Source of the DNA: an uncultured Gammaproteobacteria bacterium
Lineage (GTDB): Bacteria > Cyanobacteriota > Vampirovibrionia > LMEP-6097 > CAYGPN01
Length of the DNA stretch: 64,000 bases
Assembly (NCBI GenBank): GCA_964352085.1
Contig: CAYGPN010000009.1
Span: forward strand, 44,539-108,538
Direction of reading: 5' to 3'
Below are positions 12,355-63,753 of this stretch, piece after piece. The notes under the pieces were generated by a model that had not been told where the DNA came from, did no database searches, and was given only the letters and a program-made list of their open reading frames with translations. Numbering within the stretch: the stretch's first letter is position 1; the number at the start of each line of letters is the position of its first letter. A program made the position numbers and the translations under genes.

Positions 12355-14181
12355 TTAACGAATAACGCCAGCAATATCTGCAACGAATTCTCTAGATATA
12401 GAATCAAAACCAGTAGTATTAATGTATTCAACATTTACTGAATTGGTAGCTTGATTAAGAGTAAGTCTTAAATTAGCTTTTGTAATATCAACCGCCGCGC
12501 CATCAACTAGTGGTGTAGGAGCGCCTATACCAAAATCAACAGTATTGTTTACTAGATTAACTTTAAGCGGGCATGGAGCAAAGTTATTAAACTTAAGTTC
12601 TCTAGCATCTGCGCCAAAAGCAATAGTATGAACTCTGTTTGCTTGAACTGCATCATTCGGATCAATTGTAAACTTATCAGTATTTAAAAGACCTTGATTA
12701 AGAATCACTGAGCCATTAGTACCCATTGCTGTTAACTCGCCGTTATTGTTTGTGATGTTTATATTATTAGGAGGGTTATTTCCACTTGTATCAGAAATTG
12801 TAACGTTGTTAGTAGTCACGTTATTTCCAACTGGAGTAATAGGCTGACCATTAACAATTAGTGTTCCAGGAATAACAACTGTAGGTGCTGGTGGATTACC
12901 GTTTTGACCATCACTACCAAGAACAATTTGATTGTCAGCTGTCGTAGTAGCGCCTGCTCCAATCGCTGTAGAGTTGTCATTCGATGCCGTAGCGCCTGCT
13001 CCAACTGCTGTTGAGCCCGTGCCTGATGCTGTAGCTGCTGAGCCTAGTGCTGTAGAGTTAGTGCCTGACGCTGTTGCACCATTGCCACCTAAAAGAGTAC
13101 TTGTTAAACCAGTACCAGCTCCAACATTAACGCCAGCAACCGACAAAGTTGTTGCCACTGTTGCAGCGCCTGTTGTATCTAAAGTAGTTACTGTTGCAGC
13201 AGCTGGGTTAGTTCCACCAATAACGGTGTTATCGATAGTACCGCCATCAATGTCTGCTGTAGTTGCTGTAAGGCTTGCTGTATTGCTTGATGTTGATGTC
13301 AAAGCACCAGCATTAGTTGTAGTAGCTGTAAGTGTTGTGAAGCTAGCATTAGCTGGAGTGTTTGCACCAATTACAGAATTATCAATACTAACGCCAGTTA
13401 AAGAACCACCTGTGATTGCAACATTAGATGAAGAAATTCCACCAGTAAAAGATGCGCCTGTAATTGCGCCTGTTACAGCAAGGTTACCGCTTGCATTTAA
13501 AGTTTCAGCAACTATTAAAGAACCGTTTACTGTAGTTGTGTTTCCAGCTGTTCCAATTGAGTTTAAATTATCTGCTGTTGTGATGTTTGGCTGAAGAGCA
13601 GCTACAGAAAGGTCTGGAGTCGTTGTACCATTAGTTACTGTAATAGAAGCGTCAGCTGAAGCTACAGAAGTGACTGAACCTCCTCCTCCACCGCCGCCAG
13701 CGTTAGCTTGAAAACTAGGAGCACTAACACCATTAGAAGTAAGAATCTGACCAGCTGTTCCGGGACCCACTAAAACAGGAGCGCCAGTATTATCAAAAGC
13801 AATTATTTGACCAGCTTGAAGAATATTAGTAGCAAAGTCAACTGCTTCAATATTAGTTAAAGCGTTACCAGTACCATTTGCGTCAAATGAAATATTAGTT
13901 AAAGGACCTTGGAAAAGAAAAGGATTACCTTCAAAAGTAAGAACACCATTAGCAGTATCAATAGTACCTAAACCATCAGCAATTGCTGCATCAGGTAATT
14001 GAAATGCTGTAGCCGAAAAACCATCTGGCGCATTTGAATTATCAAGCGTTGTTCCACCTGGTCCAGCAATGTTTTGCTGAAGCGTTGCATTGGCTGGCGC
14101 TGATACTAAAGTCAGTGACAGTATTGTTGACAGCAGAAAGCCACCAAATTTCTTATTTTGATTCTTTTTCATAATATTCAT
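12355..14181 (-). CDS. Secreted fibre/adhesin-like protein with phage tail-fibre-type repeats (GGxIDNxxIG…FTTL) and YadA-head-like NSTAxG repeats.
   Basis: Likely start is MNIMKKNQNKK at 14181 (GGGGAAAGGA RBS), with a signal peptide ending …VSAPANA. The track ORF extends further upstream to 14304. Gly7 run; repeats ITGGSLTGVSIDNSVIGANTPANASFTTL and IDGGTIDNTVIGGTNPAAATVTTL; NSTALGSAATASGTGSTAVGAGATASNDNSTAIGAGA. Confidence 0.55.
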   Translation of the reverse strand: MNIMKKNQNKKFGGFLLSTILSLTLVSAPANATLQQNIAGPGGTTLDNSNAPDGFSATAFQLPDAAIADGLGTIDTANGVLTFEGNPFLFQGPLTNISFDANGTGNALTNIEAVDFATNILQAGQIIAFDNTGAPVLVGPGTAGQILTSNGVSAPSFQANAGGGGGGGSVTSVASADASITVTNGTTTPDLSVAALQPNITTADNLNSIGTAGNTTTVNGSLIVAETLNASGNLAVTGAITGASFTGGISSSNVAITGGSLTGVSIDNSVIGANTPANASFTTLTATTTNAGALTSTSSNTASLTATTADIDGGTIDNTVIGGTNPAAATVTTLDTTGAATVATTLSVAGVNVGAGTGLTSTLLGGNGATASGTNSTALGSAATASGTGSTAVGAGATASNDNSTAIGAGATTTADNQIVLGSDGQNGNPPAPTVVIPGTLIVNGQPITPVGNNVTTNNVTISDTSGNNPPNNINITNNNGELTAMGTNGSVILNQGLLNTDKFTIDPNDAVQANRVHTIAFGADARELKFNNFAPCPLKVNLVNNTVDFGIGAPTPLVDGAAVDITKANLRLTLNQATNSVNVEYINTTGFDSISREFVADIAGVIR

Positions 14182-14230
14182 TTTCCTTTCCCCGTTATTC
14201 ATTCGATTTCTCCCCCTCACATTTAACTGT

Positions 14231-15652
14231 CTATTGAAGGACCTCCGTGCTGTAAACAGCAACTGGTGATTGTGGTGTAAACACTCCTGGGAATGATTCA
14301 ACATTAACTAAATTAAGAACACCATTTGCTATAAAAACTCTAAGAAGCATATCTTGAACTAAAAGTGATGTTCCAAGAGATGTTGGAGCTGTATTTAAGT
14401 TTGTTACTTGAGCTGTTAGAGGCAATTTAACATTAACCGGATTTCCGTTAGTATCTAATCCAATGATTAATTGCTCGTTGTTTAAAAGAACACCATTAGT
14501 AATAGTGATTCTTCTAGCAATTGCATTTGCACCATTGATGTTATTCAATGGAGTATTGAAAGCAACTGGATTAGTGTTAAGTGCTAAAGATTGTGTTTCG
14601 TTGTTTGTAACTGGATTATTATTTCCACCACCAGCAATTACACAATCACCAACATCTAAAGTACCGTTCCCATTCTGATCAGTAATTCCAGGAGCATCAA
14701 AACAATTTGCACCAGCTGCACCAGGAGCGCCTGTACCACCACTAGGACCAGCAGGACCAGGAGTTCCAGCACCACCAGAACCGCCGCCGCCTGTTACTAA
14801 AAGTGTTAAAGCTGCTTCAGAATTACTAGTGTTACCAAAAACTTGATTTGTGTCTGTTGCAAAGTAAATTGTTCCAGGAGCTACAGTCGCCGGTCTTTGT
14901 GCTGCTGTACCTGAAAGGAAATTTGTGCCACCTGTTGGATTAACTATTTCATTTTGAACGTTAATTACTCTACCTCTTAGCTTACTTGTTGTATTTTTAC
15001 CAGTAGCCTTAAAGTGAATATCAAATCTAGATCCTTCATCAGTCATTCTTGGAACAACACCATTAAATTTTGAAGGCACCATAGCCATCATCAAATGGTT
15101 AGGAAGTTTTCTAGCTATCTCGATGATCTGCTCATCGTTAAAATTATTTGTAAGTGCTGGACCACTAACATCAGAAACTGAAAGGTTACCATCTGGGAAA
15201 AATGTACCTGTAAAGCGTTCAACTGTTTTTCCGTTTTCACCAAGTAGAGTGAATTCATATTGGTTGCCAGACTGTCTTAGCCCCTTGAGAAGACCTCTAA
15301 CAACAATGTTATTTTTCTTAGAAGCTTTTACTGAAAAATCACCAACATTAATTTTAGAACCGTCATCCAAAATTTCTTTTACTTCAACAACAGGAACACT
15401 ATTTTCTGGAAGTCTAAGATTTTTTGCTCTTCTGATAACAAACTTTACTTGAGCTTCATCAGTACCATTAGCCTTTACAATGTTGTCTCTACCAACAAAT
15501 TGAAGTAAAACTCTTTGATCGTCCGGCACGCCGTTATTAGTTTGTAAGCCTTGAATACCTAGATCGATTACTCTTCTTGCAGAAGCTGGGCTAATTGCTA
15601 GGCCTGCGATGAGCGTGAAACTTAGAATTATAGATTGGAACTTTTTAAACAT
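14231..15652 (-). CDS. Secreted protein with a collagen-like Gly-X-Y segment and one Cys-bracketed DxNGNG calcium-binding-like motif.
   Basis: Signal peptide MFKKFQSIILSFTLIAGLAISPASA; GGGGSGGAGTPGPAGPSGGTGAPGAAGA followed by CFDAPGITDQNGNGTLDVGDC. Confidence 0.55.
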   Translation of the reverse strand: MFKKFQSIILSFTLIAGLAISPASARRVIDLGIQGLQTNNGVPDDQRVLLQFVGRDNIVKANGTDEAQVKFVIRRAKNLRLPENSVPVVEVKEILDDGSKINVGDFSVKASKKNNIVVRGLLKGLRQSGNQYEFTLLGENGKTVERFTGTFFPDGNLSVSDVSGPALTNNFNDEQIIEIARKLPNHLMMAMVPSKFNGVVPRMTDEGSRFDIHFKATGKNTTSKLRGRVINVQNEIVNPTGGTNFLSGTAAQRPATVAPGTIYFATDTNQVFGNTSNSEAALTLLVTGGGGSGGAGTPGPAGPSGGTGAPGAAGANCFDAPGITDQNGNGTLDVGDCVIAGGGNNNPVTNNETQSLALNTNPVAFNTPLNNINGANAIARRITITNGVLLNNEQLIIGLDTNGNPVNVKLPLTAQVTNLNTAPTSLGTSLLVQDMLLRVFIANGVLNLVNVESFPGVFTPQSPVAVYSTEVLQ

Positions 15653-15862
15653 TTTTTAGTCATCTCCTGTTTTGTTGGCCAGAATTAATTATATGAAATC
15701 CTTATATACATTCTGTCCAAATAAGAATGATTCTCAATAGCCAATCCTAGCTTTTTCACGTATTACGTGTCAACTGTCTAAAGAGACTATCTTTTCAAAG
15801 CTAATAGCAGCCTATAGACTTGCTATAGACTTTTATATTTTATTCAAGATTAAAAGGCTTCT

Positions 15863-16912
15863 TTATTTACCAAAGACATCCCAACTAAAAGTTAGCGGTC
15901 CTGCAAAAACAGGGCTATATCCAGGCTGATTATCAGCCAATCTTTGTAAAACAAATCTATACTGACCGCCACCTAAATCTTCAACACCATAAAGAATATT
16001 TCCATTAGTGTTCGGTACTACTCCTAAAGTTGTTGTTGGGTCACCACCCGTAGCATTTTGGAAGCCAACATTTATAGATTTATTTGGGAAGTTAAACCTA
16101 AACTGCGGAGAGGTATTATCTGAGACAGCATACTCTAAAGTTTTACCTGCAAGCGCGCCAGCTGGAAACGACAAAGCTGTTGTAGTATTCACTTCTCTTA
16201 AAACTGGGTTGGTTGGGTCTGCTTCAGCTGGCATCACAAGCTCAACTGTTGCTATGTAGCGAGAACCAACTTGATCAAATGTAGCTGCTTCACCAGAGGC
16301 AGTTGCATCTCCAAGACCAGTAAGCTTATTAGAACCCATAACAATATTACCGCCCATAGTAAGTCCTGTTAAAGTACCCACGCTAGTTATATTTGGCTGA
16401 GCTGCTGTTTGAACAGTACCTGTTAAATCACCAATAAAGCTTGTTGCTGTAGCTGTGCCAGTCGTTACAAAATTTCCATCTGAATTAATTGCTCCTATAT
16501 TTAATTCACCAGCAGGTCCCCTTTGAGGAACAGTATTTGGTTGATTGGCAAATACACCAGTAGCTACAGCATTACCATTTACACTTAAAACACCAGATGT
16601 TGTGATATTTAAATTTGTTGTATTAATGTCTAAATTACCAGCAGCATTCTTAGAGAATGTAATAGGGTTTGCGCTATCTTCACCAATTTGTAAAAGTGGT
16701 TCAATCGGCACAATTGCATTTGGGTTACCAACTAAAACAAATCTTTTACCTGTTGAAACATCAGTGGTATCTTGCTCACCTGCTTTATAGAACTGAATGA
16801 AAGTAGCATGAGCTGGCATTGCAGTCATAAAGATTGCAAAAACAAATAATAAAGAAGCTAGAGCTCTAGCGAGTCCTTTTTTCATATTTAGTTTTTCTTC
16901 TCTTCTTATCAT
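15863..16912 (-). CDS. Secreted phage tail-fibre-like protein.
   Basis: Signal peptide …MPAHA. Motif GSNKLTGLGDATASGEAATFDQV matches the conserved tail-fibre collar motif (SNKxTxLxxGTxxxDAVNxxQL type). Thr/Gly/Asn-rich beta-rich sequence. Confidence 0.55.
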   Translation of the reverse strand: MIRREEKLNMKKGLARALASLLFVFAIFMTAMPAHATFIQFYKAGEQDTTDVSTGKRFVLVGNPNAIVPIEPLLQIGEDSANPITFSKNAAGNLDINTTNLNITTSGVLSVNGNAVATGVFANQPNTVPQRGPAGELNIGAINSDGNFVTTGTATATSFIGDLTGTVQTAAQPNITSVGTLTGLTMGGNIVMGSNKLTGLGDATASGEAATFDQVGSRYIATVELVMPAEADPTNPVLREVNTTTALSFPAGALAGKTLEYAVSDNTSPQFRFNFPNKSINVGFQNATGGDPTTTLGVVPNTNGNILYGVEDLGGGQYRFVLQRLADNQPGYSPVFAGPLTFSWDVFGK

Positions 16913-16922
16913 CCATTCAACC

Positions 16923-19025
16923 TTATGGTAAGTAACTTAAATTCAGGACATGTATGTAGAAACCTAAGCCTAAATCTAATCCTCTAAAGACAATCACATC
17001 TGAGCCTGTATCCTTATAGAAAGCCAAGCCCATATTAGTAAAGTTTGGCGCTGCAGAGCTTGCGTTACCAGCTGCAAAGACTGGCGAGCCTGTGTACTGG
17101 AAGCCTGTAATATCGCCTGTTCCATTAAAGAATATAGTCAAGTTTTGGAATGGCACAGTATTATCATTTATAACAACTCTTGTAACATTCACAGCGGCTA
17201 TCATCGGTGCTAGCGCTAATGTAGCTGGAGTATTTGCTCCTGTTGCAGGTATATTAACAATCTCAGTAGTTAAAGTAGTGTTTGATTCATTATTATCTGT
17301 TGGTCCTGAACAACCTGGATCTAATAAATCAACTAAAGTATCACCATCATTATCTAAAAGATCACTACACTGAGGACTAGACTCTGATGGGTCAGTAGGT
17401 CCACTACATCCCGGATCTACTAAATCAATAGCGCCATTACCATCATTATCAGCTCCATCCTGACACTGTTTAAATTCATTATCATTAGCATTTGCGCAGC
17501 CAGTATCAGCAGGGAAATCAACTAAACCATCAGCGTCATTATCAATACCATCCTGACATTGGTTTACAACATTAAATTCATTATTATCTGATGGTCCCGT
17601 GCAACCCGGATCAGCAGTATCTATTAAACCATCTCCATCATTATCTATTCCATCACTACATGCGGGATTCGGTGGCTCAAACTCAGAGTTGTCATTAGCA
17701 CTTGTACAACCATTATCAGCAGGAAAATCTATCAAACCATCTCCATCATTATCAGCACTATCGCTACATTCAGGCAGTGGATTAAACTCATCATTATCTG
17801 TAGCACTTGAGCATCCTGTATCAAGAGGAAAATCAATTAGGCCATCTCCATCATTATCAACAGTATCTTGGCAAGCAGGAAGAACAGAAGTACCAGGATC
17901 ACCTGCTGGTCCTGCTGGTCCTGCTGGTCCAGAAGCGCCACCTTGGCTCATTAACACATGCTCCCAAGAACCATCTGCTTCTAGTTTTCTACTAAAATAA
18001 ACATCGGTGTCTTGCCCTTGAGCGAAAATTGCAGCACTTAGAGCGCTAGTTCCTGTTAAAGAACTTGAACTTAAACTTGTGATCAATGGATCATCAAAAT
18101 TATCTGGACTTCCACCTCTACTAACAACAGTAATAAAACCATTACCTTCAGCAGTTGTTCTATAAATATCACGATCAAGTGGAGTACCAACTCCAAGTAT
18201 GCTTGTACCTTGAATTATTGTGCTGCCCTCTCCAGTGTTAACTACAAGCTTTCCTTTTTTCAAAGACTTGATTAACCTTTTTTTATTTGGAATGTCAAAG
18301 AAAACACCATCAGGATTTCTTGGGTTAATAGAAACACCAGGAGTCTTTGAAGTTCTCAGCATTAAGTTTGGATCGCGCCATAAACTATCTCTAAACTTTC
18401 TAAAAAGAGTGCTTTCTTCTGTCGTCATATCAGCAACAGTTGGCGGCAACTCAAGTTCACTAATCATTGGAACACTATCCTCTATTACTCTTTTTGCAGC
18501 CATAGCAGGGAGCTCAAATTTAAATTTCTCTCCTCTCTCTCCAATCAAATAAAGATTCATAGCTTCTTCTTGTTGATCGTAAGGAATCGGGATACGGAAA
18601 GTAACTCTTTTTGCAACAGGTCCATTTTTACCTTTATCTGCTTTTCTAATTGGAATCGGGAAAGTGACTTTAAATCTAAATTCTTCTTTTATCGAACCAT
18701 CAATTTGTGGCACAGGCTCGTAGCCCATCGCATTCACATAAGTTCTTGTCGTTGCATTTTCTGGACCTACTAAACCATTAAGGTCTACTTGAAGAGGGAC
18801 TACTGCTACATTGGTTGAACTAACAAAAGTTCTTTCAACATCTTTGCGTCGTAACTTAACTCGAGGCTGCGACAAAGAGCCAGTGTCATCACCATCAGAA
18901 GATTGAATGGTGACGAACCTCGAGGCCTTTGTTGCCGCAAAAACTTCTTCGCCAGTGAAAAAATTCACTAGACATATAATGATTAGTGCTGCAAGTATGC
19001 GGTGCACAAGTTTAGACATTGTCAC
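16923..19025 (-). CDS. Secreted 700-aa protein with a collagen-like GPAGPAGPAGDPG segment followed by seven Cys-bracketed CxDxxDNDGDGLIDFPxDxGC repeats resembling thrombospondin type-3 calcium-binding repeats.
   Basis: Signal/TM N-terminus. Repeats ACQDTVDNDGDGLIDFPLDTGC, ECSDSADNDGDGLIDFPADNGC, ACSDGIDNDGDGLIDTADPGC, QCQDGIDNDADGLVDFPADTGC, QCQDGADNDGNGAIDLVDPGC, QCSDLLDNDGDTLVDLLDPGC and more. First gene of the minus-strand cluster. Confidence 0.55.
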   Translation of the reverse strand: MTMSKLVHRILAALIIICLVNFFTGEEVFAATKASRFVTIQSSDGDDTGSLSQPRVKLRRKDVERTFVSSTNVAVVPLQVDLNGLVGPENATTRTYVNAMGYEPVPQIDGSIKEEFRFKVTFPIPIRKADKGKNGPVAKRVTFRIPIPYDQQEEAMNLYLIGERGEKFKFELPAMAAKRVIEDSVPMISELELPPTVADMTTEESTLFRKFRDSLWRDPNLMLRTSKTPGVSINPRNPDGVFFDIPNKKRLIKSLKKGKLVVNTGEGSTIIQGTSILGVGTPLDRDIYRTTAEGNGFITVVSRGGSPDNFDDPLITSLSSSSLTGTSALSAAIFAQGQDTDVYFSRKLEADGSWEHVLMSQGGASGPAGPAGPAGDPGTSVLPACQDTVDNDGDGLIDFPLDTGCSSATDNDEFNPLPECSDSADNDGDGLIDFPADNGCTSANDNSEFEPPNPACSDGIDNDGDGLIDTADPGCTGPSDNNEFNVVNQCQDGIDNDADGLVDFPADTGCANANDNEFKQCQDGADNDGNGAIDLVDPGCSGPTDPSESSPQCSDLLDNDGDTLVDLLDPGCSGPTDNNESNTTLTTEIVNIPATGANTPATLALAPMIAAVNVTRVVINDNTVPFQNLTIFFNGTGDITGFQYTGSPVFAAGNASSAAPNFTNMGLAFYKDTGSDVIVFRGLDLGLGFYIHVLNLSYLP

Positions 19026-28078: not shown

Positions 28079-28420
28079 AGTTTATCTACAGATAGATTGC
28101 TTCGCTTCACTCGCAATGACGGTTTCTAGCCTTTATATTCAAATAGTTGCGTCATTACCAATAATAAAAGCCTTAAGAATACTGTAGAAAACTGTTTATA
28201 ACTTGTAGAAAAGTCTACAGAGAAAGTAGATAAAAATAGGCTCTTTTTCTATTAAAAATCGAAACTGTTCATAACTTTAAAACTGTAGAAAGTTTTCTAC
28301 ATCAATTCTCTAATACAGAAGCCCTCTTTGGGACTTATCTACAAAAACTTATTAGCCTACTACTACTTTTAATATATATAATCTATTGTTCTAATAGTAA
28401 GTATAAATATAAAAATCTCA
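28079..28420. promoter_or_regulatory. Cluster of DnaA-box-like 9-mers (TTATCTACA / TTTTCTACA, both orientations) followed by an AT-rich stretch, lying upstream of dnaN. Candidate oriC.
   Basis: TTATCTACA at 28082 and 28337. TGTAGAAAA (the reverse complement of TTTTCTACA) at about 28185 and 28205. TTTTCTACA at about 28295. CTTTCTACA as a reverse complement at about 28284. AT-rich aatatatataatctattgttctaatagtaagtataaatataaaaat at 28370-28420. Confidence 0.45.
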
Positions 28421-28508: not shown

Positions 28509-29627
28509 ATGAAATTAAAAGTTCCCAAGTCAACATTAGATAAAGCATTAAAAGCTGTATGTCGAGCTGTACCAAATAAGGGGATTCAGCCGATTCTAAA
28601 TAATATTCTTTTAGAAAACAGTAACGGTCATTTGCTTTTAAATGCAACAGATTTGGATTTTTACATTGAAGCTAAAATCCCATCAACAAATATTGATCCT
28701 GGACGTATTACTCTTTCAGCTAAAAAATTAGAAGAAATAGTGGCTAAGCTTGATGACGATGATGTATCTATTGACGTGAATATTGGTACCAATGAAGCAA
28801 AGCTAGAGTGTAATAGCGCTCATTTTGATTTGCTTGGTATTTCTGCTGAAGATTTTCCTGAATTCAAAAAACCAACATCAGAAAACTTTTTTTCAGTTGA
28901 AGCTAGTAAACTGGCTAGAGCTCTTAATCTTGTAAGTTTTTCAGCATCTAGATTTGATATCAATAATATCTTAGGTGGTGTTTATATGTGCATCACTGAC
29001 GGGGTTTTAGAGCTTGCAGCAACTGATGGTAATAGACTTTCTAGTTATGAGTTAAAGCTTGAAAATGCGCCTACTGAGCTTGAAGGTAAAGAAGTTGTTG
29101 TGCCTGTTAAAGTGATTGACGAGGTTAATAAAATTATCGAAAGCAGCGTGGATGAAAATGTAGAAATTGCATTTTTAAACTCACAGATTGTAATCAAGAC
29201 AGAAGATAGGTTTGTGGTTTCTAGACTCCTTGATGGCGTTTATCCTAAATACAAACAACTTATACCGAAAGAGAGTGATAAGATCGCTCAACTTGATCGT
29301 AAGGCTTTTTATAGCTCACTTGAAAGAGTTGCTGTGATGGCAAATGAAAGAACTAATTTAGTTAAACTTAGCTTTAATGAAAATCTACTTGATATTCAAT
29401 CTAGTAATTTAGATCTTGGTGGCGCTGAGGATAATATGGAAGTTGAGTATATGGGAGAGCCAATAGATATCTTCTTTAACGTTAAATATATGCTTGAGGC
29501 TATTAAAAATATAAATTCTGAGAAGATACAAATCGCTATGACTAAATCATTAAGCCCAGCAATTATTAAGCCAATTTCTGAAGATAAGTTTATTTACCTC
29601 ATAATGCCTGTTAAATCAAAGGCTTAG
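28509..29627 (+). CDS. dnaN: DNA polymerase III beta sliding clamp.
   Basis: 372 aa. N-terminus MKLKVPKSTLDKALKAVCRAVPNKGIQPILNNILLE, a three-domain length, and C-terminus …PAIIKPI…YLIMPVK, all typical of DnaN. Confidence 0.75.
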   Translation: MKLKVPKSTLDKALKAVCRAVPNKGIQPILNNILLENSNGHLLLNATDLDFYIEAKIPSTNIDPGRITLSAKKLEEIVAKLDDDDVSIDVNIGTNEAKLECNSAHFDLLGISAEDFPEFKKPTSENFFSVEASKLARALNLVSFSASRFDINNILGGVYMCITDGVLELAATDGNRLSSYELKLENAPTELEGKEVVVPVKVIDEVNKIIESSVDENVEIAFLNSQIVIKTEDRFVVSRLLDGVYPKYKQLIPKESDKIAQLDRKAFYSSLERVAVMANERTNLVKLSFNENLLDIQSSNLDLGGAEDNMEVEYMGEPIDIFFNVKYMLEAIKNINSEKIQIAMTKSLSPAIIKPISEDKFIYLIMPVKSKA

Positions 29628-29628
29628 G

Positions 29629-29766
29629 GTCATTACGAGCAATTTTATGTCATTGCGAGTAAAGCGAAGCAATCCCATGGATCACCACGTCGCCTTTGGC
29701 TCCTCGTGATGACATGCTAGCTGAACTCCTCGTGATGACATGCTAGCTGCGCTCCTCGCAATGACG
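29629..29766. repeat. Intergenic palindromic repeat element cluster, with modules gtcattgcgag / gcgaagcaatcc / atggatcaccacg / ctcgtgatgac.
   Basis: Directly visible; shares modules with the loci at 40280, 41526, 49419, 61240 and 63569. Confidence 0.8.
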
Positions 29767-31552: not shown

Positions 31553-32455
31553 TTACAACCCTTCTTTCCTAGCTTCCCTGAGCTCTTTTCTTGTTATGCC
31601 AGTTTGACTAAGATCTGGTGTGCCTTTTGCTCCCATTTTTATTAATCTAAGAATCAAGCCTCTAGGACCATAGGAATCTTCTATATTAAATTTACGAATG
31701 AGTTCAGGTCTAAAAAATCTGAATCTCCTCATGTTTGTTCTAAAATCACTAAGATCTAAGCCTTTTAATGAAAATTTCTTATCACTATTTATAACTTCCT
31801 TATAAACATCTTCTAAGTTTATCCCTAAGGAATCTAAATCAACACCTCGGCTTTTTAAGAACAATAGAACATGAAGATGTTCATTGTCTGCAGCAAATAT
31901 AGCTGCAAGATTATCATCTGCAGAGAAATCAACACCCGGCTTGCCATCAAGAAACTCAAGAACATGAAGTTGCCCATAGAATGCAGTAAATATAGCTGTT
32001 TGATTATCACGTGCAGAAAAATCAACACCCGGCTTGCCATCAAGGAACTTAAGAACATTAAGATGTCCACTCGGAGCCGCCAATCTAATTGCTTCATTAT
32101 CATTTGCAGCAGGGTCTGCACCAGCAGAAAAAGCAAGTTTTACTTCTTCAAGATTTCCTCTTTTTGAATGTTCTATAAGAGCATTATCCTTATCTTCCTG
32201 GCTCATATTAATATATGGATTCTCTAATTTTCTAGAAGTCTTATTAGTATTAGAATCATCAGGAGGATCACTAGGTGGTGGATTGGCAGATCCTGTTGCA
32301 GAATTGGGTATATGGTGATGCAGTTCTTTTTTATTTATCTCATTTGGTTCTTTGGAAGAATCTGAAAAATGCTTTATACCTCCACCTGAATTTGCTGCAC
32401 TTATTGGTGGCGCGAATCTTTGTTCTATTTGGGCTTGGTATACCTCTAGACCCAT
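31553..32455 (-). CDS. Ankyrin-repeat protein with a Pro-rich N-terminus.
   Basis: Tandem ~33-aa repeats …GADPAANDNEAIRLAAPSGHLNVLKFLDGKPGVDFSARDNQTAIFTAFYGQLHVLEFLDGKPGVDFSADDNLAAIFAADNEHLHVLLFL… matching the ankyrin consensus (xxGxxxLHxAAxxGHxxVVxxLLxxGA). Confidence 0.6.
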   Translation of the reverse strand: MGLEVYQAQIEQRFAPPISAANSGGGIKHFSDSSKEPNEINKKELHHHIPNSATGSANPPPSDPPDDSNTNKTSRKLENPYINMSQEDKDNALIEHSKRGNLEEVKLAFSAGADPAANDNEAIRLAAPSGHLNVLKFLDGKPGVDFSARDNQTAIFTAFYGQLHVLEFLDGKPGVDFSADDNLAAIFAADNEHLHVLLFLKSRGVDLDSLGINLEDVYKEVINSDKKFSLKGLDLSDFRTNMRRFRFFRPELIRKFNIEDSYGPRGLILRLIKMGAKGTPDLSQTGITRKELREARKEGL

Positions 32456-37913: not shown

Positions 37914-38879
37914 CTAAGAAAGATCAAGCAACATTGAAAGGTCTATATTGCTTGGCTTATTAGTTAAAGAGCCCACGGAAATTAAATCCACGCCAGCTTT
38001 AGCATAAGACTCGATACTATCAAGCGTGATGCCACCACTCGCCTCTATCTTTATATTTTTATTAATGCCGTACTTTTCTATTAGAATTTTAACTTCGCTA
38101 ATCGCCTTTTTGCAATCTTCAGGAGAGAAGTTATCAAGCATGATTACATCGACAGCTGCTTTAACAACAGGTTCTAGTTGCTCAAATTTTTCTACTTCAC
38201 ACTCTATCTTTGTATCTTTAGAAATTTCAGAAGAGAGAAGCTTCTCTCTAGTTTTGTTTATAAATGTTTCTAGGCAGAGCTTGTCGTCTTTCAGATTTTC
38301 TTTAGCTGCAAAAATAAGATGATTTTCTTTTATTAAAACCATATCGCTAAGGTTATAACGGTGATTAGAACCTCCCCCCTGAATCACTGCCTGTTTACCA
38401 AGCTCTCGCATGCCTGGCATAGTCTTTCTAGTATCTAGTAGTTTGACGGGGTAATCTTTTATTTTTTCTATAAATTTGCTTGTGTAAGTAGCTACTCCAG
38501 AAAGTCTTTGGAGAAAATTTAAAACAGTACGCTCAGCGCTTAGAAGAACATGAGCTGCGCCTTCAAGCTCAGCAATTGTATCTCCAGCTTTAAAAGCTTC
38601 ACCATCTTTATATAAAAACTGAATGCTCGATTTTTTAAAATTGAAGCGAGGTTCAATCTCTCTAGATAGAATCTCAGTGCATTCATCAAGGATTTCTTGA
38701 GCTAGCTTCGAGCAAGCCAATATCCCATCTTCTTTAGCGATGATCTTGCCTTTAGCCATAGTTTCAGGGTCTATTGAGAATCTGCAGGTGATATCACCAT
38801 TTGGTTCAAGGTCATTAAGAAGAGAGATCCTTATTAGCTCTTTGTTGCGGCTTATTGTTTTTGTGGGGTTTTTTAGCAT
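37914..38879 (-). CDS. nadC: Nicotinate-nucleotide pyrophosphorylase (quinolinate phosphoribosyltransferase) / ModD family.
   Basis: GGGSNHRYNLSDMVLIKENH and C-terminal EASGGITLDSI…GVDLISVGSLT motifs. Confidence 0.65.
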   Translation of the reverse strand: MLKNPTKTISRNKELIRISLLNDLEPNGDITCRFSIDPETMAKGKIIAKEDGILACSKLAQEILDECTEILSREIEPRFNFKKSSIQFLYKDGEAFKAGDTIAELEGAAHVLLSAERTVLNFLQRLSGVATYTSKFIEKIKDYPVKLLDTRKTMPGMRELGKQAVIQGGGSNHRYNLSDMVLIKENHLIFAAKENLKDDKLCLETFINKTREKLLSSEISKDTKIECEVEKFEQLEPVVKAAVDVIMLDNFSPEDCKKAISEVKILIEKYGINKNIKIEASGGITLDSIESYAKAGVDLISVGSLTNKPSNIDLSMLLDLS

Positions 38880-39017
38880 CAGAGTTAAGTAACACAGATT
38901 ATAGCTTATACTGATTAGTTTTTGCCTGCGCTTGCTAGTTCAAATCAAAGATTTTCAGGATATCCTTAAATAACTATTATGAACCTGTATTGCGAATATA
39001 TATTTCAGTTTCGCCCT

Positions 39018-39026
39018 TGCTATAAT
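39018..39026 (+). promoter_or_regulatory. Extended -10 element (TGcTATAAT) upstream of rplK.
   Basis: tgctataat lies 34 nt upstream of the rplK ATG. Confidence 0.3.
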
Positions 39027-39060
39027 ACCTATTCGTCTCCACAAGGGGCAGGTAATAAAA

Positions 39061-39495
39061 ATGGCAGCAAACGGAAAAAAAATATCAGGGTTCATTAATC
39101 TTCAGCTAGAAGCAGGAAAGGCCTCACCAGCGCCCCCAGTAGGCCCGGCACTTGGTCAACATGGTGTTAACATCATGGATTTTTGTAAAGCATACAATGA
39201 TGCGACAAAAGATAAAGCCGGATATATTATTCCAGTTGTAATCACCGTATATGAAGATCGTTCATTTACTTTTATTACAAAAGAGCCGCCAGCAGCTATT
39301 CTTATCAAAAAGAAAATCAAATTGGCTAAAGGTTCAGCAGTTCCTCATAAAGATAAAGTTGGAAACATTACTGACAAACAACTTGCTGAAGTTGCTGAAG
39401 CAAAAATGCCTGACTTAAATGCTAATGATATTGATGCAGCGAAAAAAATTATTGCTGGATCAGCGCGTAGCATGGGAGTTACAACTGTAGGCTAG
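39061..39495 (+). CDS. rplK: 50S ribosomal protein L11.
   Basis: [40 protein letters not shown] is the canonical bacterial L11 N-terminus. Confidence 0.85.
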
Positions 39496-39566
39496 TGCCA
39501 AGAGCACTTTTTATAATGGTTTGAAAATCAGATAAAGCACAAAATTATTTAACTAGGAAAAAAACA

Positions 39567-40274
39567 ATGGCGAAAGAAACTAAAAGACAAAAAGCAATTA
39601 AAGAACTAGCAACAGCTAATCAGGGCTCAAGTCCTGCTGAAGCAATTAAGACGCTAAAAGAATTTTGCAAAGGTCAAAAATTTGACCACACAATTGAGCT
39701 AGCTGTTCAACTTGGTATCGATACTAAAATGAGTGACCAGCAAGTTCGTTCATCTATTCCACTTCCGGCTGGAACTGGTAAAAAAGTTAGTATCGCTGTT
39801 ATCGCTAAAGGTGAGAAAGTTGCTGAAGCGAAAGAAGCTGGCGCTGAGTTTGTTGGTTTCGAAGATCTTATTAAGAAAATTGAAGGCGGATGGATGGACT
39901 TTGATGTTCTAGTTGTAACTCCTGATGCTATGGCTCAGGTTGGTAAACTTGGTAGAACTCTTGGACCTCGTGGTCTTATGCCTAACCCTAAAGATGGCAC
40001 AGTTACTATGGATATTAAAAAAGCTGTAACTGAGCTTCAAGCAGGTAAAGCGCAGGTTCGTGCTGAGAAAACAGGCTCTGTAGTTCATGTTCCTATCGGT
40101 AAAGCAAGCTTCTCTGAAGAAGACCTAGCTAAGAATTACTCTGCCGTTATGTCTGAAATCCAGAAGAATAAGCCAGCTTCAGCTAAAGGCACTTACCTGA
40201 AATCAGTAGCTCTTAGCAGCACTCATGGACCTGGGATTTCAATAGCTTCTGATAAAGCACTAGTTACCGCTTAA
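39567..40274 (+). CDS. rplA: 50S ribosomal protein L1.
   Basis: 235 aa, follows rplK. …VDVLVVTPDAMAQVGKLGRTLGPRGLMPNPKDGTVT… is the L1 signature. Confidence 0.85.
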   Translation: MAKETKRQKAIKELATANQGSSPAEAIKTLKEFCKGQKFDHTIELAVQLGIDTKMSDQQVRSSIPLPAGTGKKVSIAVIAKGEKVAEAKEAGAEFVGFEDLIKKIEGGWMDFDVLVVTPDAMAQVGKLGRTLGPRGLMPNPKDGTVTMDIKKAVTELQAGKAQVRAEKTGSVVHVPIGKASFSEEDLAKNYSAVMSEIQKNKPASAKGTYLKSVALSSTHGPGISIASDKALVTA

Positions 40275-40279
40275 TTCCC

Positions 40280-40340
40280 GTCATTGCGAGCCCGAAGGGT
40301 GAAGCAATCCATAGATCACCACGCTTCGCTCGTGATGACA
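40280..40340. repeat. Single copy of the ~60-bp palindromic repeat element (reverse orientation) between rplA and the phosphatase-like gene.
   Basis: gtcattgcgagcccgaagggtgaagcaatccatagatcaccacgcttcgctcgtgatgaca is the reverse complement of the unit at 41526-41736. Confidence 0.8.
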
Positions 40341-40456
40341 ATTATTTAATCCTTCTTATCTTGACTAAAATACCAAGTGTATTGCTATAATTCTTCGTGA
40401 AAGGCTGATTTAGCTCTTGAAAAAGCAAGTCAATACAATCTTGTCCTTCAAAAATA

Positions 40457-41524
40457 ATGGCAATTGGTGTAGCAAGTCAAATAAAACCCACGCCTCAAGT
40501 AATGGGGATGCAAGAGCTTCTTGCAAATCCTAACTTTGATTTTTCAAAAATTGATCCTGAGATTTTAAAATCTCTGCCTCCTTTAGATCCTGCGCAGCTT
40601 CATCAGTTTTCAAATTTAGATTTATCAGAAGCCTCATCATCAATTTCAAACACGGACTTAACAGGGAGGACAAAGTCTGAAGCTCTTAAAGATATAAATA
40701 TTGCACCTAAATCTCAGATACCGAAAGGGTCTGAGATTATTACTTTTGATTTAGATGAAACTCTTATCTCATGTAACAAACTTACTAACGCTATGAAGAA
40801 AGCCGGTCAGAAGCTCGGCTATAAACTTTATAAATCTAAAGAAGGTAGTGAGTTTTTTGTAAGACCTGGTGCTGAAGAGCTTCTTAAATGGATTAAAGAT
40901 CAAGGTTTTAAGATAGTAGTTTCAAGTCGTAATTTTGAAAAGTATGAAGATGATATTTTAGCAAGTTGTGGTTTGGGTCAGTATGTGGACTACACTACTG
41001 GACATATGGATTTAGTTGAGTCAGCTAAAGCTGCTGACAAAAAGAAATTTCCTAATCATCCTAATAATAAATTAGGAATACTTACTTGGTCAGGAAGAGT
41101 TACCCACTCTGTCTTTAAAGGAATTTTTAAAGATACTTTGTGGCGTGGTTTTAAGCACTATGTTTTAAGAGACCAAAATATCAAACCATATTTCCCTGTT
41201 GCAGCTTGGCGTAATAATAAATATCCACCGTATCTAAGCGGGTCTAGAGTTTTGATAGATAATCTTTATGAAGAAACTCTTATTAACAGTAAAGCTTCAG
41301 AAGATTGGGTTGCACTTAACCCTGGTGAATTCTATGGTGATAAAGAAGAGCCTAAGAATAAAGATGGCGAATATACTTGGGTGGCTAATATTAAAAAAGG
41401 TCTGAATATTCAGAAGAACCAAGGCTGGAAAGCCCTGTATGAACGTGAGTATCATAAAAAACCAATAGATGATAAGGTTCCACTTGCTGAGCAAGCTAAA
41501 GCCGAGCCTAAGATTAAAGTTTAA
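40457..41524 (+). CDS. HAD-superfamily phosphatase of the FCP1/NIF (NLI-interacting factor, CTD-phosphatase-like) type, with an N-terminal extension.
   Basis: Motif I ITFDLDETLIS (DxDxT with Leu-Asp-Glu-Thr-Leu as in FCP1-homology domains), then FFVRPGAEELLKWIKDQGFKIVVSSRN (motif II Ser/Thr region) and later Lys/Asp-containing segments. This domain type is mainly eukaryotic. Confidence 0.5.
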   Translation: MAIGVASQIKPTPQVMGMQELLANPNFDFSKIDPEILKSLPPLDPAQLHQFSNLDLSEASSSISNTDLTGRTKSEALKDINIAPKSQIPKGSEIITFDLDETLISCNKLTNAMKKAGQKLGYKLYKSKEGSEFFVRPGAEELLKWIKDQGFKIVVSSRNFEKYEDDILASCGLGQYVDYTTGHMDLVESAKAADKKKFPNHPNNKLGILTWSGRVTHSVFKGIFKDTLWRGFKHYVLRDQNIKPYFPVAAWRNNKYPPYLSGSRVLIDNLYEETLINSKASEDWVALNPGEFYGDKEEPKNKDGEYTWVANIKKGLNIQKNQGWKALYEREYHKKPIDDKVPLAEQAKAEPKIKV

Positions 41525-41525
41525 A

Positions 41526-41736
41526 GCCATCACGAGTGAAGCGTGGTGATCTATGGATTGCTTCACCCTTCGGGCTCGCAATGACAACCCGTCATCACGA
41601 GCGAAGCGTGGTGATCCATGGATTGCTTCACCCTTCGGGCTCGCAATGACAACCCGTCATCACGAGTGAAGCGTGGTGATCTATGGATTGCTTCACCCTT
41701 CGGGCTTGCAATGACGGGGCTATGCTCGCAATGACA
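41526..41736. repeat. Three tandem copies of the ~60-bp palindromic repeat unit (gtcatcacgagYgaagcgtggtgatcYatggattgcttcacccttcgggctYgcaatgac) separated by aacc.
   Basis: Directly visible. Each unit is an imperfect palindrome (gtcatcacgagcgaagcg … cgcttcgctcgtgatgac in the reverse-complement sense). Confidence 0.85.
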
Positions 41737-41737
41737 C

Positions 41738-43312
41738 TTAAAAAACTTCTAAAATAATCTGACTATCTATAAAACCACTATCAGTGTCTGTTGCAGTCAC
41801 AGTGATTTGAGCTCCTTCAGTTAAAAAGTCAGGAAATTCATCAAGGAAATCACTAAGAGGCGCAAATGTGGCAGTAATTTTTTTATATAATTTACGTTTG
41901 CCTATTTTAAAACTCTCTTTATTAAAGCTAATTAAATCCGGAGAGCTTGAGCTAAGACTTAGTCTCACTGTTTTCTTTTTAAATGGTTTAATTTTAGTAA
42001 ATTTAATTTTAGAAGTCACTTCATCAAAATCACCAACTAGAGTTGAGTTATTTACTGCTTTGCCGCTAGCTTTAAAACTTCTTTTAATTGCATCAGGGTC
42101 AGTACCTGGCATCCCACCATTAGTAGCACCACCCAAGTTAATAGTTGTTAGTTGTCCAGCATTAATAGTTATTTGCTGAGCGTTATTAAGAGCGTCTTCT
42201 AAGCTGACATCTAAAAGAGCCTCACCTGTTCCATTAAAAAATCCAGTAGTAAAAGAACTAGGATTTTTAGGTGGAGCTACAGGACCTACTGAAGATGCAC
42301 CTGTAAATTCGCTAAAGATTGGCTCAACTTTTAAAATATAGTTGCCAGGAGGCAAGCCTGGGATTATAAATTCAGCGTTTCCAGTTGTAAAGAGATCTAC
42401 AACGCTAGAAACAGCCAGAGCAGTGTTATCTACATTAAAAGCAATTACATTACCGCCAGTTAAAGCATTACTGTTAGAATCTCTAGCTTCGCCTCTAAGT
42501 GTTCCAAACTCTGTCATAAAATCAGTTTCGGCGTAAGCAGCTGGGGAAGAAACAGAAACAACATCATCTAGAAGTAGAGTGAAACCTGGATTTGCAAGAA
42601 TGGGAAACATGATTGGTATGTTTGATAAGTTCGAGGGTTGACCATTACGTCTTTTTAAAAACTCCTCTAAGAAAACTTGAGTGTGGTCTAAGCCAATTGC
42701 ATGTCCAAATTCGTGAAGAACAGTTGATTTAAAATTATTTGTATTTGTAACAGAAGTCTCACCAAAAAGATTAGATAAGGTAAAAAGAAAACCATTAAAA
42801 GCTGCTTGTGACTCGACTATTATTTCTGAACTTGGTGATATGAAAGTCGGTCCAGCAAAGCCAAGCACACTTGCCTTAGACCCTTGACCAAAGAAGCTTT
42901 CGAAGATCTCCCCATCATCATCAAAAACTATAGGTGTAAAACCTAAAGTACCATTAGGTGAAAGAATGGACTGGAAATTAGTTTCATTAATATCAGAGCT
43001 CAAAGTACCTTGATTTAGAAAATTGATTTTAGAAGTTTCCACATTATTCCAAGTAGCTAGAATATCGTTTGTAAGCATTTGCGGGTTGACAAGGTCGCCT
43101 AAAGGACCTTGATCGTTTCTATAAAGTACATTAACAACTGTGCCGCTGCTTGGGAAAGTGGGATAGAACTTTTGAGAGTCTGAACAATTTGAACCTCCAT
43201 TTGGGCAGGCTGCTAAAAGTCCAGCAGCTTTTGCTTCGCTCACAAAATTAGCAAAGGACAAAACAAATATAAGGAAAGCTAAAAATCTTAGCGATAAGGG
43301 CTTGAGGAGCAT
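41738..43312 (-). CDS. Secreted zinc metalloprotease of the metzincin type (HExxHxxGxxH plus Met-turn).
   Basis: Signal peptide; HEFGHAIGLDHTQ and a downstream IMFPIL Met-turn. Paralogous to 43322-44533. Confidence 0.6.
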   Translation of the reverse strand: MLLKPLSLRFLAFLIFVLSFANFVSEAKAAGLLAACPNGGSNCSDSQKFYPTFPSSGTVVNVLYRNDQGPLGDLVNPQMLTNDILATWNNVETSKINFLNQGTLSSDINETNFQSILSPNGTLGFTPIVFDDDGEIFESFFGQGSKASVLGFAGPTFISPSSEIIVESQAAFNGFLFTLSNLFGETSVTNTNNFKSTVLHEFGHAIGLDHTQVFLEEFLKRRNGQPSNLSNIPIMFPILANPGFTLLLDDVVSVSSPAAYAETDFMTEFGTLRGEARDSNSNALTGGNVIAFNVDNTALAVSSVVDLFTTGNAEFIIPGLPPGNYILKVEPIFSEFTGASSVGPVAPPKNPSSFTTGFFNGTGEALLDVSLEDALNNAQQITINAGQLTTINLGGATNGGMPGTDPDAIKRSFKASGKAVNNSTLVGDFDEVTSKIKFTKIKPFKKKTVRLSLSSSSPDLISFNKESFKIGKRKLYKKITATFAPLSDFLDEFPDFLTEGAQITVTATDTDSGFIDSQIILEVF

Positions 43313-43321
43313 AGTTATATT

Positions 43322-44533
43322 TTAGTTTAATGAGGAGAGGTCTAGGGTCCCAACTTTGGTTTTTTTACCAGCCGTTACTGTTATTAATCCACTTTCGCTG
43401 ATCTGATTAACAGCGCTGGTAACTAGAGTGCTAGCTGCTAGGAAAGGACTCCCTGAACCAGCAAAATAACCACCTTGAAGACTAGTATTTGGTGAGTAAA
43501 TCCCAACAGAAGAAGCTCCAGTGAAAGTTGAACCAATTGGTTGAAATCTTAATATAACTTGAGTTGATCCATTAACAGGGAAAGGTATGCTAAATGATCC
43601 AGTGCCTTTACCTTTAGTGTCAGATGGTACAGAGACGGTTTTGTTTGTTGGATCGTTAATATCATACGCAGTAACTACAAAGCCAGTAACTGCTTTGCCT
43701 GCATTTTGAATCTTTCCAACAATTTTTCCGTAGCCAGCTTTAAAAGCGGTTTTATTTTTATAGGCATCAGAAACAGCAGCTTTGTCATCTTCTTTAAGGC
43801 TAGGGCTTTGATTTAGAAAGCTAAATAGCGTAGGGAACATTACAGAGACATTTCCAGGGTTACTGCCTTCCTCACCAGTTTTAAAGTTTCCATCAAAGTT
43901 CTGGGTATGATCTATACCAAAAGAATGACCAACTTCATGAGTAATAGTTAGATCTGCTCCATTTTTGATAGTCTGCAGGCTAGAACCTGGGTTATTAGCT
44001 GTTGTAAAGAAATTACCATTAACAATTAATCTAGAGTTATTAATTTTTTTAGAGCTAGGTATAACAAAAAGAGGACCACCAAGACCAAGTACAGTATTTT
44101 CACCACCTTGACCAAAAATTGAGTTTATCGCGTCACCCGAATTATCTATGATTGCAACACTGCCACTTTTAGTTTTATTAAAAGTATTAAGAACATCATT
44201 TAAATTATCAAACTGAAGTGCTGAGCTTGAGAGCGTTAATTTAAATTTTGATCCAGGCACATTTGCCCACCTGCTAAATGCGTTTTGTACTAACTGTCTT
44301 GCACCAGCAATATCACCAATGCTATCAGCTCCACCTTGAAATATACCAAGCTTGTATGTGGTCTTAGGTTTTTTGCCTTTGTATTTAAAGAATAGGTTTT
44401 TTTTAGGTACGCAATTAGATGAACCATCTTTGCATCTGCCTATTAAACTTGCGCTATAAGCTGCATTATCGAGAAGCAGTGCAAAAATAACTGCTAATGA
44501 AAGTGTTAGTAAAGCTGATTTTCTAAGTTTCAT
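43322..44533 (-). CDS. Secreted zinc metalloprotease of the metzincin type; tandem paralog.
   Basis: Signal peptide; HEVGHSFGIDHTQ and VMFPTL. Shares the blocks VLGLGGPLF, NGNFFT and TFTGASSVG with its neighbour. Confidence 0.6.
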   Translation of the reverse strand: MKLRKSALLTLSLAVIFALLLDNAAYSASLIGRCKDGSSNCVPKKNLFFKYKGKKPKTTYKLGIFQGGADSIGDIAGARQLVQNAFSRWANVPGSKFKLTLSSSALQFDNLNDVLNTFNKTKSGSVAIIDNSGDAINSIFGQGGENTVLGLGGPLFVIPSSKKINNSRLIVNGNFFTTANNPGSSLQTIKNGADLTITHEVGHSFGIDHTQNFDGNFKTGEEGSNPGNVSVMFPTLFSFLNQSPSLKEDDKAAVSDAYKNKTAFKAGYGKIVGKIQNAGKAVTGFVVTAYDINDPTNKTVSVPSDTKGKGTGSFSIPFPVNGSTQVILRFQPIGSTFTGASSVGIYSPNTSLQGGYFAGSGSPFLAASTLVTSAVNQISESGLITVTAGKKTKVGTLDLSSLN

Positions 44534-63534: not shown

Positions 63535-63563
63535 AAGATCGGGTGAAAACCCGATCTTTTTTT
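63535..63563 (+). terminator. Rho-independent terminator (aaagatcggg-tgaaaa-cccgatcttt plus a T7 run).
   Basis: Perfect 10-bp stem, 6-nt loop and a T-run, directly after the stop of the 63014-63508 ORF. Confidence 0.7.
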
Positions 63564-63568
63564 GCGTT

Positions 63569-63753
63569 GTCATCACGAGCGAAGTGTGTTGTCATCACGA
63601 GCGAAGCGTGTTGTCATCACGAGCGAAGCGTGTCGTCATCACGAGCGAAGCGTGTCGTCATCACGAGCGAAGCGTGGTGATCCCATGGATTGCTTCGCCA
63701 GTAGGCTCGCAATGACAGCTAGGCTCGCAATGACAGCTAGGCCCGCAATGACA
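63569..63753. repeat. Tandem array of five 22-bp units (tYgtcatcacgagcgaagYgtg), one palindromic core, then three units of ctaggcYcgcaatgaca. It is a repeat-element variant with no spacers.
   Basis: Directly visible. The unit is half of the palindromic element found elsewhere. Confidence 0.85.

Follow-up and report, generated by a model that had tools for sequence, protein, structure and literature searches.

A divergent HAD phosphatase gene between REP-type repeats in a probable Melainabacterium

The 64,000-nt stretch of bacterial DNA analysed here (positions 44,539–108,538 of contig CAYGPN010000009.1; called the window below, and coordinates are window positions unless another contig is named) contains, after the ribosomal protein gene rplA, a gene for a 355-residue protein of the HAD superfamily. 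The first-pass annotation had described this open reading frame (ORF) with its motif ITFDLDETLIS correctly (Table 1), together with the palindromic repeats on both sides of it. According to our results the HAD gene is an old, vertically inherited resident of its bacterial lineage and not a mobile or eukaryote-derived cassette. Its product is a HAD phosphatase that forms a distinct family, not a standard NIF domain, and has the FCP1/SCP/Dullard enzymes as its nearest known relatives. The repeats belong to a genome-wide REP (repetitive extragenic palindromic)/REPIN-like family of CGTC-tagged hairpin doublets and are not part of the gene. Taken as a whole, it is likely that this is a functional, long-resident gene for a divergent HAD phosphatase and that the repeats flanking it are ordinary REP-type elements. 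A eukaryotic effector cassette mobilised by miniature inverted-repeat transposable elements (MITEs) does not stand. There is instead a small unannotated bacterial HAD family, nearest to FCP1/SCP, that comes in two architectures distinguished by a Sec signal peptide or a disordered N-terminal extension. This family could help to relate the C-terminal domain (CTD)-phosphatase fold to bacterial HADs.

Residence of the HAD gene at its locus

A different history of the locus has to be weighed, namely that a eukaryote-derived FCP1/SCP-type gene was transferred horizontally, was mobilised by or inserted with the flanking inverted repeats and displaced rplJ-rplL. Three features speak for it: the flanking copies are inverted and 97–98% complementary over 58–63 nt, NIF is the best specific Pfam family for the protein, and rplA is not followed by rplJ/rplL. 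We nevertheless regard this history as very improbable, mainly because the HAD gene is found at the same locus in five further genomes, on contigs that lack the repeat motif.

Specifically, orthologues of the HAD gene are present on the syntenic contigs L001, L013, L009, L014 and L005 (65%, 54%, 50%, 44% and 28% identity, respectively), and on all five a convergent metalloprotease-like gene adjoins it (32–50% identity, tblastn). The same gene almost certainly lies next to the HAD gene in L012 too, a 97% identical strain whose contig ends before the gene. rplA is the 5′ neighbour of the HAD gene in the window, in L001 and in L005, the window rplA being 69% identical to the L001 copy. L005, a metagenome-assembled genome (MAG) of Candidatus (Ca.) Caenarcanales, Melainabacteria, has rplA, the HAD gene and the metalloprotease-like gene in the same order, at 66%, 28% and 32% identity. 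The order in L001 is rplA, an extra 342-aa ORF (1018–2046 of that contig, no Pfam match, absent from the window), the HAD gene and then a downstream block in common with the window, which consists of two metalloprotease-like genes, a gene for a product of about 170 aa, a GAF histidine kinase, an antiporter subunit and a CDF transporter. In L001, ilvD (6094–7794) sits after the two metalloprotease genes and is absent from the window. Shared L001 genes are 40–77% identical to those of the window, and the 65% of the HAD gene falls inside that range. The same downstream block is found in L009, and L013 and L014 keep the convergent metalloprotease-like gene.

The 11-nt repeat motif GTCATYRCGAG is absent from L001, L005, L009, L013 and L014. 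Where the window has a 213-nt repeat array, the convergent genes of L001 and L013 overlap each other. L012 is the only syntenic contig with repeats; they are at identical positions there, and the contig ends within them. Repeat-free syntenic orthologues mean that the HAD gene is older than the repeats and that the separation of rplKA from rplJL is ancestral. The proposal of the first-pass annotation that the gene is a horizontally acquired cassette or MITE-flanked unit is thus contradicted by what is found in relatives, where the gene occupies the same position without repeats. For the same reason a repeat-flanked mobilisable cassette was rejected as a candidate explanation.

The same annotation had placed the HAD gene where rplJ/rplL would be expected. 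This is correct in so far as the gene follows rplA and no rplJ/rplL homologue was found in the window by tblastn with E. coli L10 and L7/L12 queries (best E = 1.9). It is important to note that rplA lacks rplJ/rplL behind it in L001 and L005 as well, so the operon break predates the genome of the window.

Composition also speaks for residence. The G+C content of the HAD gene is 35.6% as compared to 36.2 ± 2.6% for the window, its G+C content at third codon positions (GC3) is 24.4% as compared to 24.7 ± 4.0%, and in codon usage it ranks 10th of 52 genes (rank 1 being the most typical). Transfer from a eukaryote to a bacterium was rejected on these grounds and because the best homologues form a small bacterial metagenome family; no close eukaryotic homologues were found. 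There is no target-site duplication around the unit: the only sequence common to its flanks is CTTAA, and this overlaps with the two stop codons.

Finally, repeat bracketing of the HAD gene is no more than expected by chance. Repeats occupy 7 of the 53 intergenic regions of the window, and permutation over these regions gives 0.79 genes bracketed on both sides as compared to the two observed, the probability of at least one such gene being 0.59. The second bracketed gene is dnaN (28509–29627), which has inverted copies at 28090–28137 and 29629–29765 and serves as an internal control against the cassette reading.

Relationship of the protein to known HAD families

Conservation was judged on an alignment of 22 family sequences, which was also the input for an AlphaFold2 model. 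Motif I of the HAD protein is F97-D98-L-D100-E-T102 (DxDx(T/V)), at the end of strand E94–98; motif II is S157/S158, past strand E152–156; motif III is K255 and motif IV is D268-N269. T102, K255 and D268 are invariant, with D268 followed by N or D, and at least 90% of the sequences have F97, D98, L99, D100, E101 and L103. S157 and K255 are separated by about 97 residues that include a 29-residue helix, and the family has a conserved C-terminal helical extension. The model has a mean pLDDT of 80.7 and is confident over residues 90–355, with block means of 72–97 across the domain. Membership of the HAD superfamily is supported by motif I, by the order of motifs II–IV and by the Rossmannoid HAD fold.

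Past motif I the model has a helix (111–119) and two strands (124–126 and 132–135). In SCP1 structures a three-stranded beta insertion past motif I forms the substrate groove. The insert of the HAD protein is similar to it in size and different in make-up.

Among profile families, Pfam Hydrolase (generic HAD) gives 30.1 bits, above its gathering score, and Pfam NIF (PF03031) 29.1 bits against a gathering score of 21.8. NIF is matched by all 22 family members (best E 2.5e-11) and is the most consistent specific family. Nothing in NCBIfam scores above its cut-off for the HAD protein: HAD-IIIC gives 32.0 bits (cut-off 35.75), MDP-1 25.4 bits (53.75) and Dullard-like TIGR02251 20.6 bits (139.15). 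In an hhalign comparison with a canonical NIF protein, 90 columns from motif I to just past motif II are aligned with a probability of 93.6%. When the model was compared with the PDB by Foldseek, the first matches were TIM50, SCP2/3/1, Fcp1 and CTDNEP1, at E about 1e-4. For the FCP1-homology/NIF family, therefore, the gathering score and the nearest solved structures fit, whereas a full-domain match including the spacing of motifs III–IV and the TIGR02251 cut-off fail. The FCP1/NIF label of the first-pass annotation is partly right.

The other part of that label, eukaryote-like, is not borne out. A single-sequence search of 5.8 billion proteins gave 5 homologues and a profile search 21. When 1.84 billion cluster representatives were searched exhaustively with a profile, 62 were found at E ≤ 1e-3, 35 of them at E ≤ 1e-10. 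Canonical, eukaryotic-looking NIF proteins (89–136 bits to Pfam NIF) occur only in the weak tail of that search, at E about 1e-4 to 1e-5, which indicates a wide gap between the HAD family and eukaryotic FCP1/SCP. The family was found in bacterial metagenome sequences only. Species-representative genomes that carry it are MAGs labelled Melainabacteria or Ca. Caenarcanales, one labelled Gammaproteobacteria and an unclassified bin with two loci. In one giant protein retrieved (P0044, 2825 aa), 7 separate stretches match the family profile and the Pfam NIF score is 116 bits; this appears to be a multi-HAD-domain protein.

Compared with the FCP1-homology/NIF proteins (PF03031: SCP1-3, Fcp1, CTDNEP1/Dullard, UBLCP1, TIM50), the HAD protein shares a DLDETL-type motif I, an RPG..ELL...(S/T) stretch leading into motif II, an adjacent D-N pair as motif IV (VLIDN) and a small insert past motif I that is not a helical bundle. 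It differs from them in aligning by sequence over the N-terminal half alone. Its family has about 95 extra residues between motifs II and III, a conserved C-terminal extension (W..LY.REY...P) and no BRCT, ubiquitin-like or transmembrane partner domain; it is also tiny, is confined to bacterial metagenome sequences and has Sec signal peptides in about half of its members. The MDP-1/HAD subfamily IIIC capless phosphatases (TIGR01685, TIGR01681) are different as well, since the HAD protein does not reach the curated cut-offs and has additional insertions as well as an extended N-terminus.

Family architectures, substrate and site of action

The family falls into two architectures. About 21 members have a Sec-type signal peptide, mostly directly before motif I. 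About 26 members, the HAD protein among them, have no hydrophobic segment; they begin with a short conserved start, M-[GAV]-[ILV]-x-[VLA] (e.g. MAIGVAS, MGLGVVD, MGLVVGN, MVLGLFNK, MGLGNIFNK), which is followed by a polar, disordered and fast-evolving region of 50–110 aa rich in S/T/N/Q/A/P, so that motif I is at residues 52–113. In the HAD protein itself residues 1–88 are modelled with low confidence (pLDDT 36–76 in the 10-residue blocks covering residues 1–90), and no Sec-type signal peptide is present, the highest 10-residue Kyte-Doolittle mean being 1.01. The length of the extension varies among homologues, and most differences between the HAD protein and its counterpart in the 97% identical strain L012 are located in it. 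N-myristoylation of the MG... starts was considered and rejected, as most members fail at position 6.

Two further observations concern the family. Eight of the about 26 signal-less members (P0006, P0028, P0032, P0036, P0041, P0043, P0045 and P0048) end in -AA (LAA, VAA, KAA, IAA), which resembles the C-terminus of the ssrA degradation tag; the HAD protein of the window ends in KIKV instead. On contigs L002 and L010 a family gene of the signal-peptide type is convergent with flgH, followed by a ROK kinase and comEC.

By analogy with the HAD superfamily the protein would be a Mg2+-dependent phosphomonoesterase that works through an aspartyl-phosphate, with Asp98 as the presumed nucleophile and Asp100 as the presumed general acid/base. 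Its core fold and motif I–II region are closest to the FCP1/SCP/Dullard (NIF) branch, from which the protein stands apart as a member of a separate small family known from bacterial metagenome sequences. Its site of action is probably the cytoplasm, and the gene belongs to a bacterium of low GC content, which is most likely a Caenarcanales-type Melainabacterium.

As to the substrate, we lean towards a phosphoprotein or phosphopeptide, in what is close to an even call. This leaning comes from the protein-acting structural neighbours, the small insert past motif I, the fast-evolving orthologue and the disordered extension. An ordinary small-molecule phosphatase, acting on a sugar phosphate, a nucleotide or similar, is only a little less likely, though short of an even chance. 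In that case the insertions would cap the active site and the likeness to FCP1/SCP would reflect a shared minimal HAD core. Such an enzyme would agree with the generic families scoring much like NIF (Hydrolase 30.1, HAD_2 22.1, HAD-IIIC 32.0 and MDP-1 25.4 bits), with phosphoglycolate phosphatases coming first in the PDB profile search, with the about 95 extra residues, including the 29-residue helix, at the C2-cap position and with one family member that scores above the Pfam threshold for class B acid phosphatases. It agrees less well with the structure searches, which rank protein- or peptide-directed C0-type enzymes first, and with the segment of about 33 residues between motif I and helix alpha-1 of the model, which is too short for a helical C1 cap. 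Moreover, such fast evolution and a disordered 90-aa extension would be unexpected in a metabolic enzyme.

The first-pass annotation had brought in secreted effectors of intracellular pathogens. This goes beyond the evidence: the window protein has no Sec-type signal peptide. Our literature searches on bacterial NIF effectors and on Melainabacteria effectors found nothing relevant. Still, export by a route other than Sec can be imagined, the protein being an effector-type phosphatase that acts outside the cell on prey, host or competitor, with the N-terminal tip and the disordered extension as its secretion signal. We consider this unlikely. About 26 members do combine the lack of a hydrophobic signal with a conserved short start and a polar region of 50–110 aa, strain differences accumulate in this extension, the orthologue evolves fast (28% identity where rplA has 66%), the sister branch of the family is Sec-exported and the nearest structural relatives act on proteins. 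However, no secretion-system genes were seen adjoining the HAD gene, disordered N-terminal regions are common in cytoplasmic regulators too and the N-myristoylation-type pattern is not consistently present. A more specific form of this idea, that the signal-less branch is a lineage-specific, fast-evolving FCP/SCP-like phosphatase of Caenarcanales-like Melainabacteria, encoded beside rplA and the gene of a secreted metalloprotease, exported independently of Sec and acting on the phosphoproteins of another cell, is slightly less probable still. If it were true, a bacterial effector family on the CTD-phosphatase fold would have arisen inside bacteria and not via transfer from eukaryotes.

Returning to a resident cytoplasmic HAD phosphatase among ordinary REP elements, several points weigh against it or parts of it. 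The subfamily placement of the protein is not clear-cut: the NIF match spans profile positions 3–72 of 160, i.e. the N-terminal half alone, and in a sequence-profile search of the PDB the top entries are generic HAD-IA proteins resembling phosphoglycolate phosphatase (E 1.3e-4), with SCP and FCP absent from the results. Sec signal peptides in about half of the family suit periplasmic nutrient phosphatases better than protein phosphatases. The insertion of about 95 residues at the C2-cap position could close the active site, which would favour small substrates. The taxon assignment depends on the submitters' MAG labels, on rplA identity and on the synteny of three genes, and the promoter of the HAD gene and the RNA role of the repeats are readings of the sequence alone.

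Neighbouring features and the repeats compared with CGTC-tagged REPs

Table 1. Features of the HAD gene locus (window positions)
Feature	Position	Strand	Remarks
rplK (ribosomal protein L11)	39061–39495	+	Pfam Ribosomal_L11_N 3e-30, Ribosomal_L11 1.8e-24
rplA (ribosomal protein L1)	39567–40274	+	Pfam Ribosomal_L1 8.5e-66
Single REP doublet	40277–40339	+	Starts 3 nt past the rplA stop codon
Promoter-like element upstream of the HAD gene	40361–40391	+	TTGACT, 19 nt, TGcTATAAT (extended −10); sequence reading
HAD phosphatase gene, 355 aa	40457–41524	+	ORF confirmed; start 182 nt past rplA
N-terminal extension, residues 1–88	40457–40720	+	Polar, predicted disordered, no hydrophobic core
HAD phosphatase domain with family-specific insertions	40721–41524	+	
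Codons of ITFDLDETLIS (HAD motif I, residues 95–105)	40739–40771	+	Sequence and translation
Array of three REP doublets and one extra half module	41528–41735	−	Orientation as in the transcript of the minus-strand gene
Metalloprotease-like gene, 524 aa, convergent to the HAD gene	41738–43312	−	HEFGHAIGLDH motif; weak Pfam Peptidase_M10 and CarboxypepD_reg matches

The HAD gene appears, as far as the sequence can be read, to be transcribed separately from its own extended −10 promoter. The predicted element (Table 1) sits between the upstream repeat and the start codon; the promoter scan accepts spacers of 16–18 nt only, and the TTGACT-N19-TATAAT site is hence not listed by it. The box TGTATTGCTA(T/C)(A)AT, which makes up the predicted extended −10, is conserved in front of the L001 and L013 orthologues but not of the one in L009. 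The genes downstream of the HAD gene are on the opposite strand.

rplK and rplA stand alone at 39061–40274, with a divergent nadC upstream where secE-nusG would be and no rplJ-rplL downstream. No Rfam family matches the window at the gathering level, or the region 38800–41900 in E-value mode, so no Rfam L1/L10 leader was detected and no known RNA corresponds to the repeats. A tRNA scan found no tRNA gene in the window, which speaks against a tRNA-linked island, and no paralogue of the HAD gene lies within the window.

The N-terminus of the convergent 524-aa metalloprotease-like protein is hydrophobic and signal-peptide-like. A second, paralogous gene of this kind is located at 43322–44533 on the minus strand, and its product has such an N-terminus too. 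Both proteins have the HExxHxxGxxH motif and weak Peptidase_M10/Reprolysin/CarboxypepD_reg matches. The HAD gene and the convergent metalloprotease-like gene may be linked functionally.

Other repetitive features of the window are ORFs at 8566–10444, 12355–19025 and 31553–32455. The spacing of the DNA repeats at 8866–9664 looks, from the sequence, like pentapeptide-repeat coding. Large minus-strand ORFs have internal repeats of 42 nt and 93–105 nt and GPAGPG collagen-like stretches, and one ORF has a 93-nt tandem repeat.

The repeats around the HAD gene had been located by the first-pass annotation to within about 3 nt, as one reverse copy upstream and three forward tandem copies downstream. 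Their full unit consists of two related inverted modules, cCGTC-ATTGCGAG...GCAAT-CCA and the complement of cCGTC-ATCACGAG...GTGAT-CCA, with the CGTC tags outside. Over all sites the module patterns are cCGTC-AT-TGC...GCA-AT-CCA and cCGTC-AT-CAC...GTG-AT-CCA/CTA, with TGTC and GGTC variants at sites other than those beside the HAD gene, and in the stem of a single module 5 pairs are perfect (ATTGC/GCAAT, ATCAC/GTGAT). The doublet behind rplA is a head-to-head heterodimer: its module A reads CGTC-ATTGCGAG...GCAAT-CCA, and module B is inverted and ends in ...CTCGTGAT-GAC. It is present at the same place in L012, and its motif is absent from L001 and L005. The downstream array is in the opposite orientation and has 2.9 copies (41528–41715/41722) with a 65-nt period and 95% matches, plus an extra half copy that reaches 41735. 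Doublets of 60 nt alternate in it with 5-nt AACCC spacers, and it takes up all of the space from one convergent stop codon (41524) to the other (41738). A CRISPR-like array was rejected here, given the period of 65 nt and spacers that are constant and only 5 nt long.

These repeats are by no means confined to the HAD gene. The window has 25 matches of the motif GTCATYRCGAG where 0.07 would be expected, and a 29-nt repeat core is found 4 times against 0.00 expected. The motif matches fall into seven sites, all of them intergenic, with none in the 10 divergent intergenic regions. At four sites the repeat unit starts 2–4 nt past a stop codon or ends 2–3 nt before one; the stop codons abutted in this way belong to dnaN, rplA, the CDF gene, the HAD gene and its convergent 524-aa neighbour.

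Folding adds an explanation for the arrangement. The doublet behind rplA folds as one long RNA hairpin on the plus strand (dG −26.9 kcal/mol, z −4.67). For the downstream array the minus strand gives −30.0 as compared to −24.4 on the plus strand. In general the doublet hairpins reach −26.9 to −30.0 kcal/mol on the strand that has G-U pairs in place of C-A mismatches, and the opposite strand gives −24.4 to −24.7. The stronger-folding orientation is sense to rplA upstream and sense to the minus-strand 524-aa gene downstream. Each element is thus oriented to the gene whose 3′ end it abuts, which accounts for the "inverted" arrangement around the HAD gene. The hairpins are not classical terminators, because no clear T-runs lie behind them. 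In our proposal one REP copy would have landed after rplA and the array between two convergent stop codons. The elements would be selfish or neutral REP-type insertions and, if active at all, would probably work as RNA hairpins at 3′ ends.

Some further observations on these repeats should be mentioned. Within 63540–63753, a hairpin of the classical terminator type (GATCGGGTGAAAACCCGATC and then seven T) precedes tandem half-REP modules, 22 nt × 5 at 63566–63676 and 18 nt × 3 at 63702–63753; from such arrays, half modules seem to amplify on their own. The short-read contigs L007, L008 and L012, from the same or a near-identical strain, end exactly within REP copies, both behind rplA and on either side of the HAD gene, which implies that the repeats are numerous genome-wide. 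REP-type copies also lie directly downstream of distant family members in other MAGs, at 8750–8803 of L002 (CCGTCATTGCGAGCGCAGCGAAGCAATCC) and at 1690–1865 of L006.

A literature query with the repeat sequences returned only unrelated papers, mostly on eukaryotic gene expression. The family that the repeats resemble is that of the CGTC-tagged REPs surveyed by Di Nocera et al. 2013 (PMC3733652). In that survey, the CGTC tag is sometimes TGTC, stems start with AT and have CCA tails, and the elements are predominantly head-to-head dimers within 20 bp of the 3′ ends of ORFs; stems have 8–9 bp and loops 4–5 nt, and grouped elements are rare. CGTC REPs there have no dedicated transposase beside them, such as the RAYT of GTAG REPs. 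The five phyla that the survey names as carrying CGTC repeats include neither Cyanobacteria nor Melainabacteria.

Set against this description, the window repeats agree in the terminal CGTC/TGTC tag, in stems that start with A-T, T-A, in the CCA tail, and in having the tags outside in all full doublets, i.e. as head-to-head dimers, which are here heterodimers with a spacer of 1–3 nt. They also agree in lying at most a few nt away from stop codons, between genes that are co-directional or convergent, and in the ability of a doublet to fold as one large hairpin. They differ in that the window modules have about 5 perfect stem pairs and interiors of about 12 nt as compared to 8–9 bp and 4–5 nt, and in the tandem arrays of doublets and half modules (41528–41735 and 63566–63753). 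The window thus offers a clear case of REP doublets of the CGTC type in what is probably a Melainabacterium, and Melainabacteria are missing from the list of that survey. More generally, REP doublets can mimic inverted repeats that flank a cassette, and they break short-read assemblies at exactly such points.

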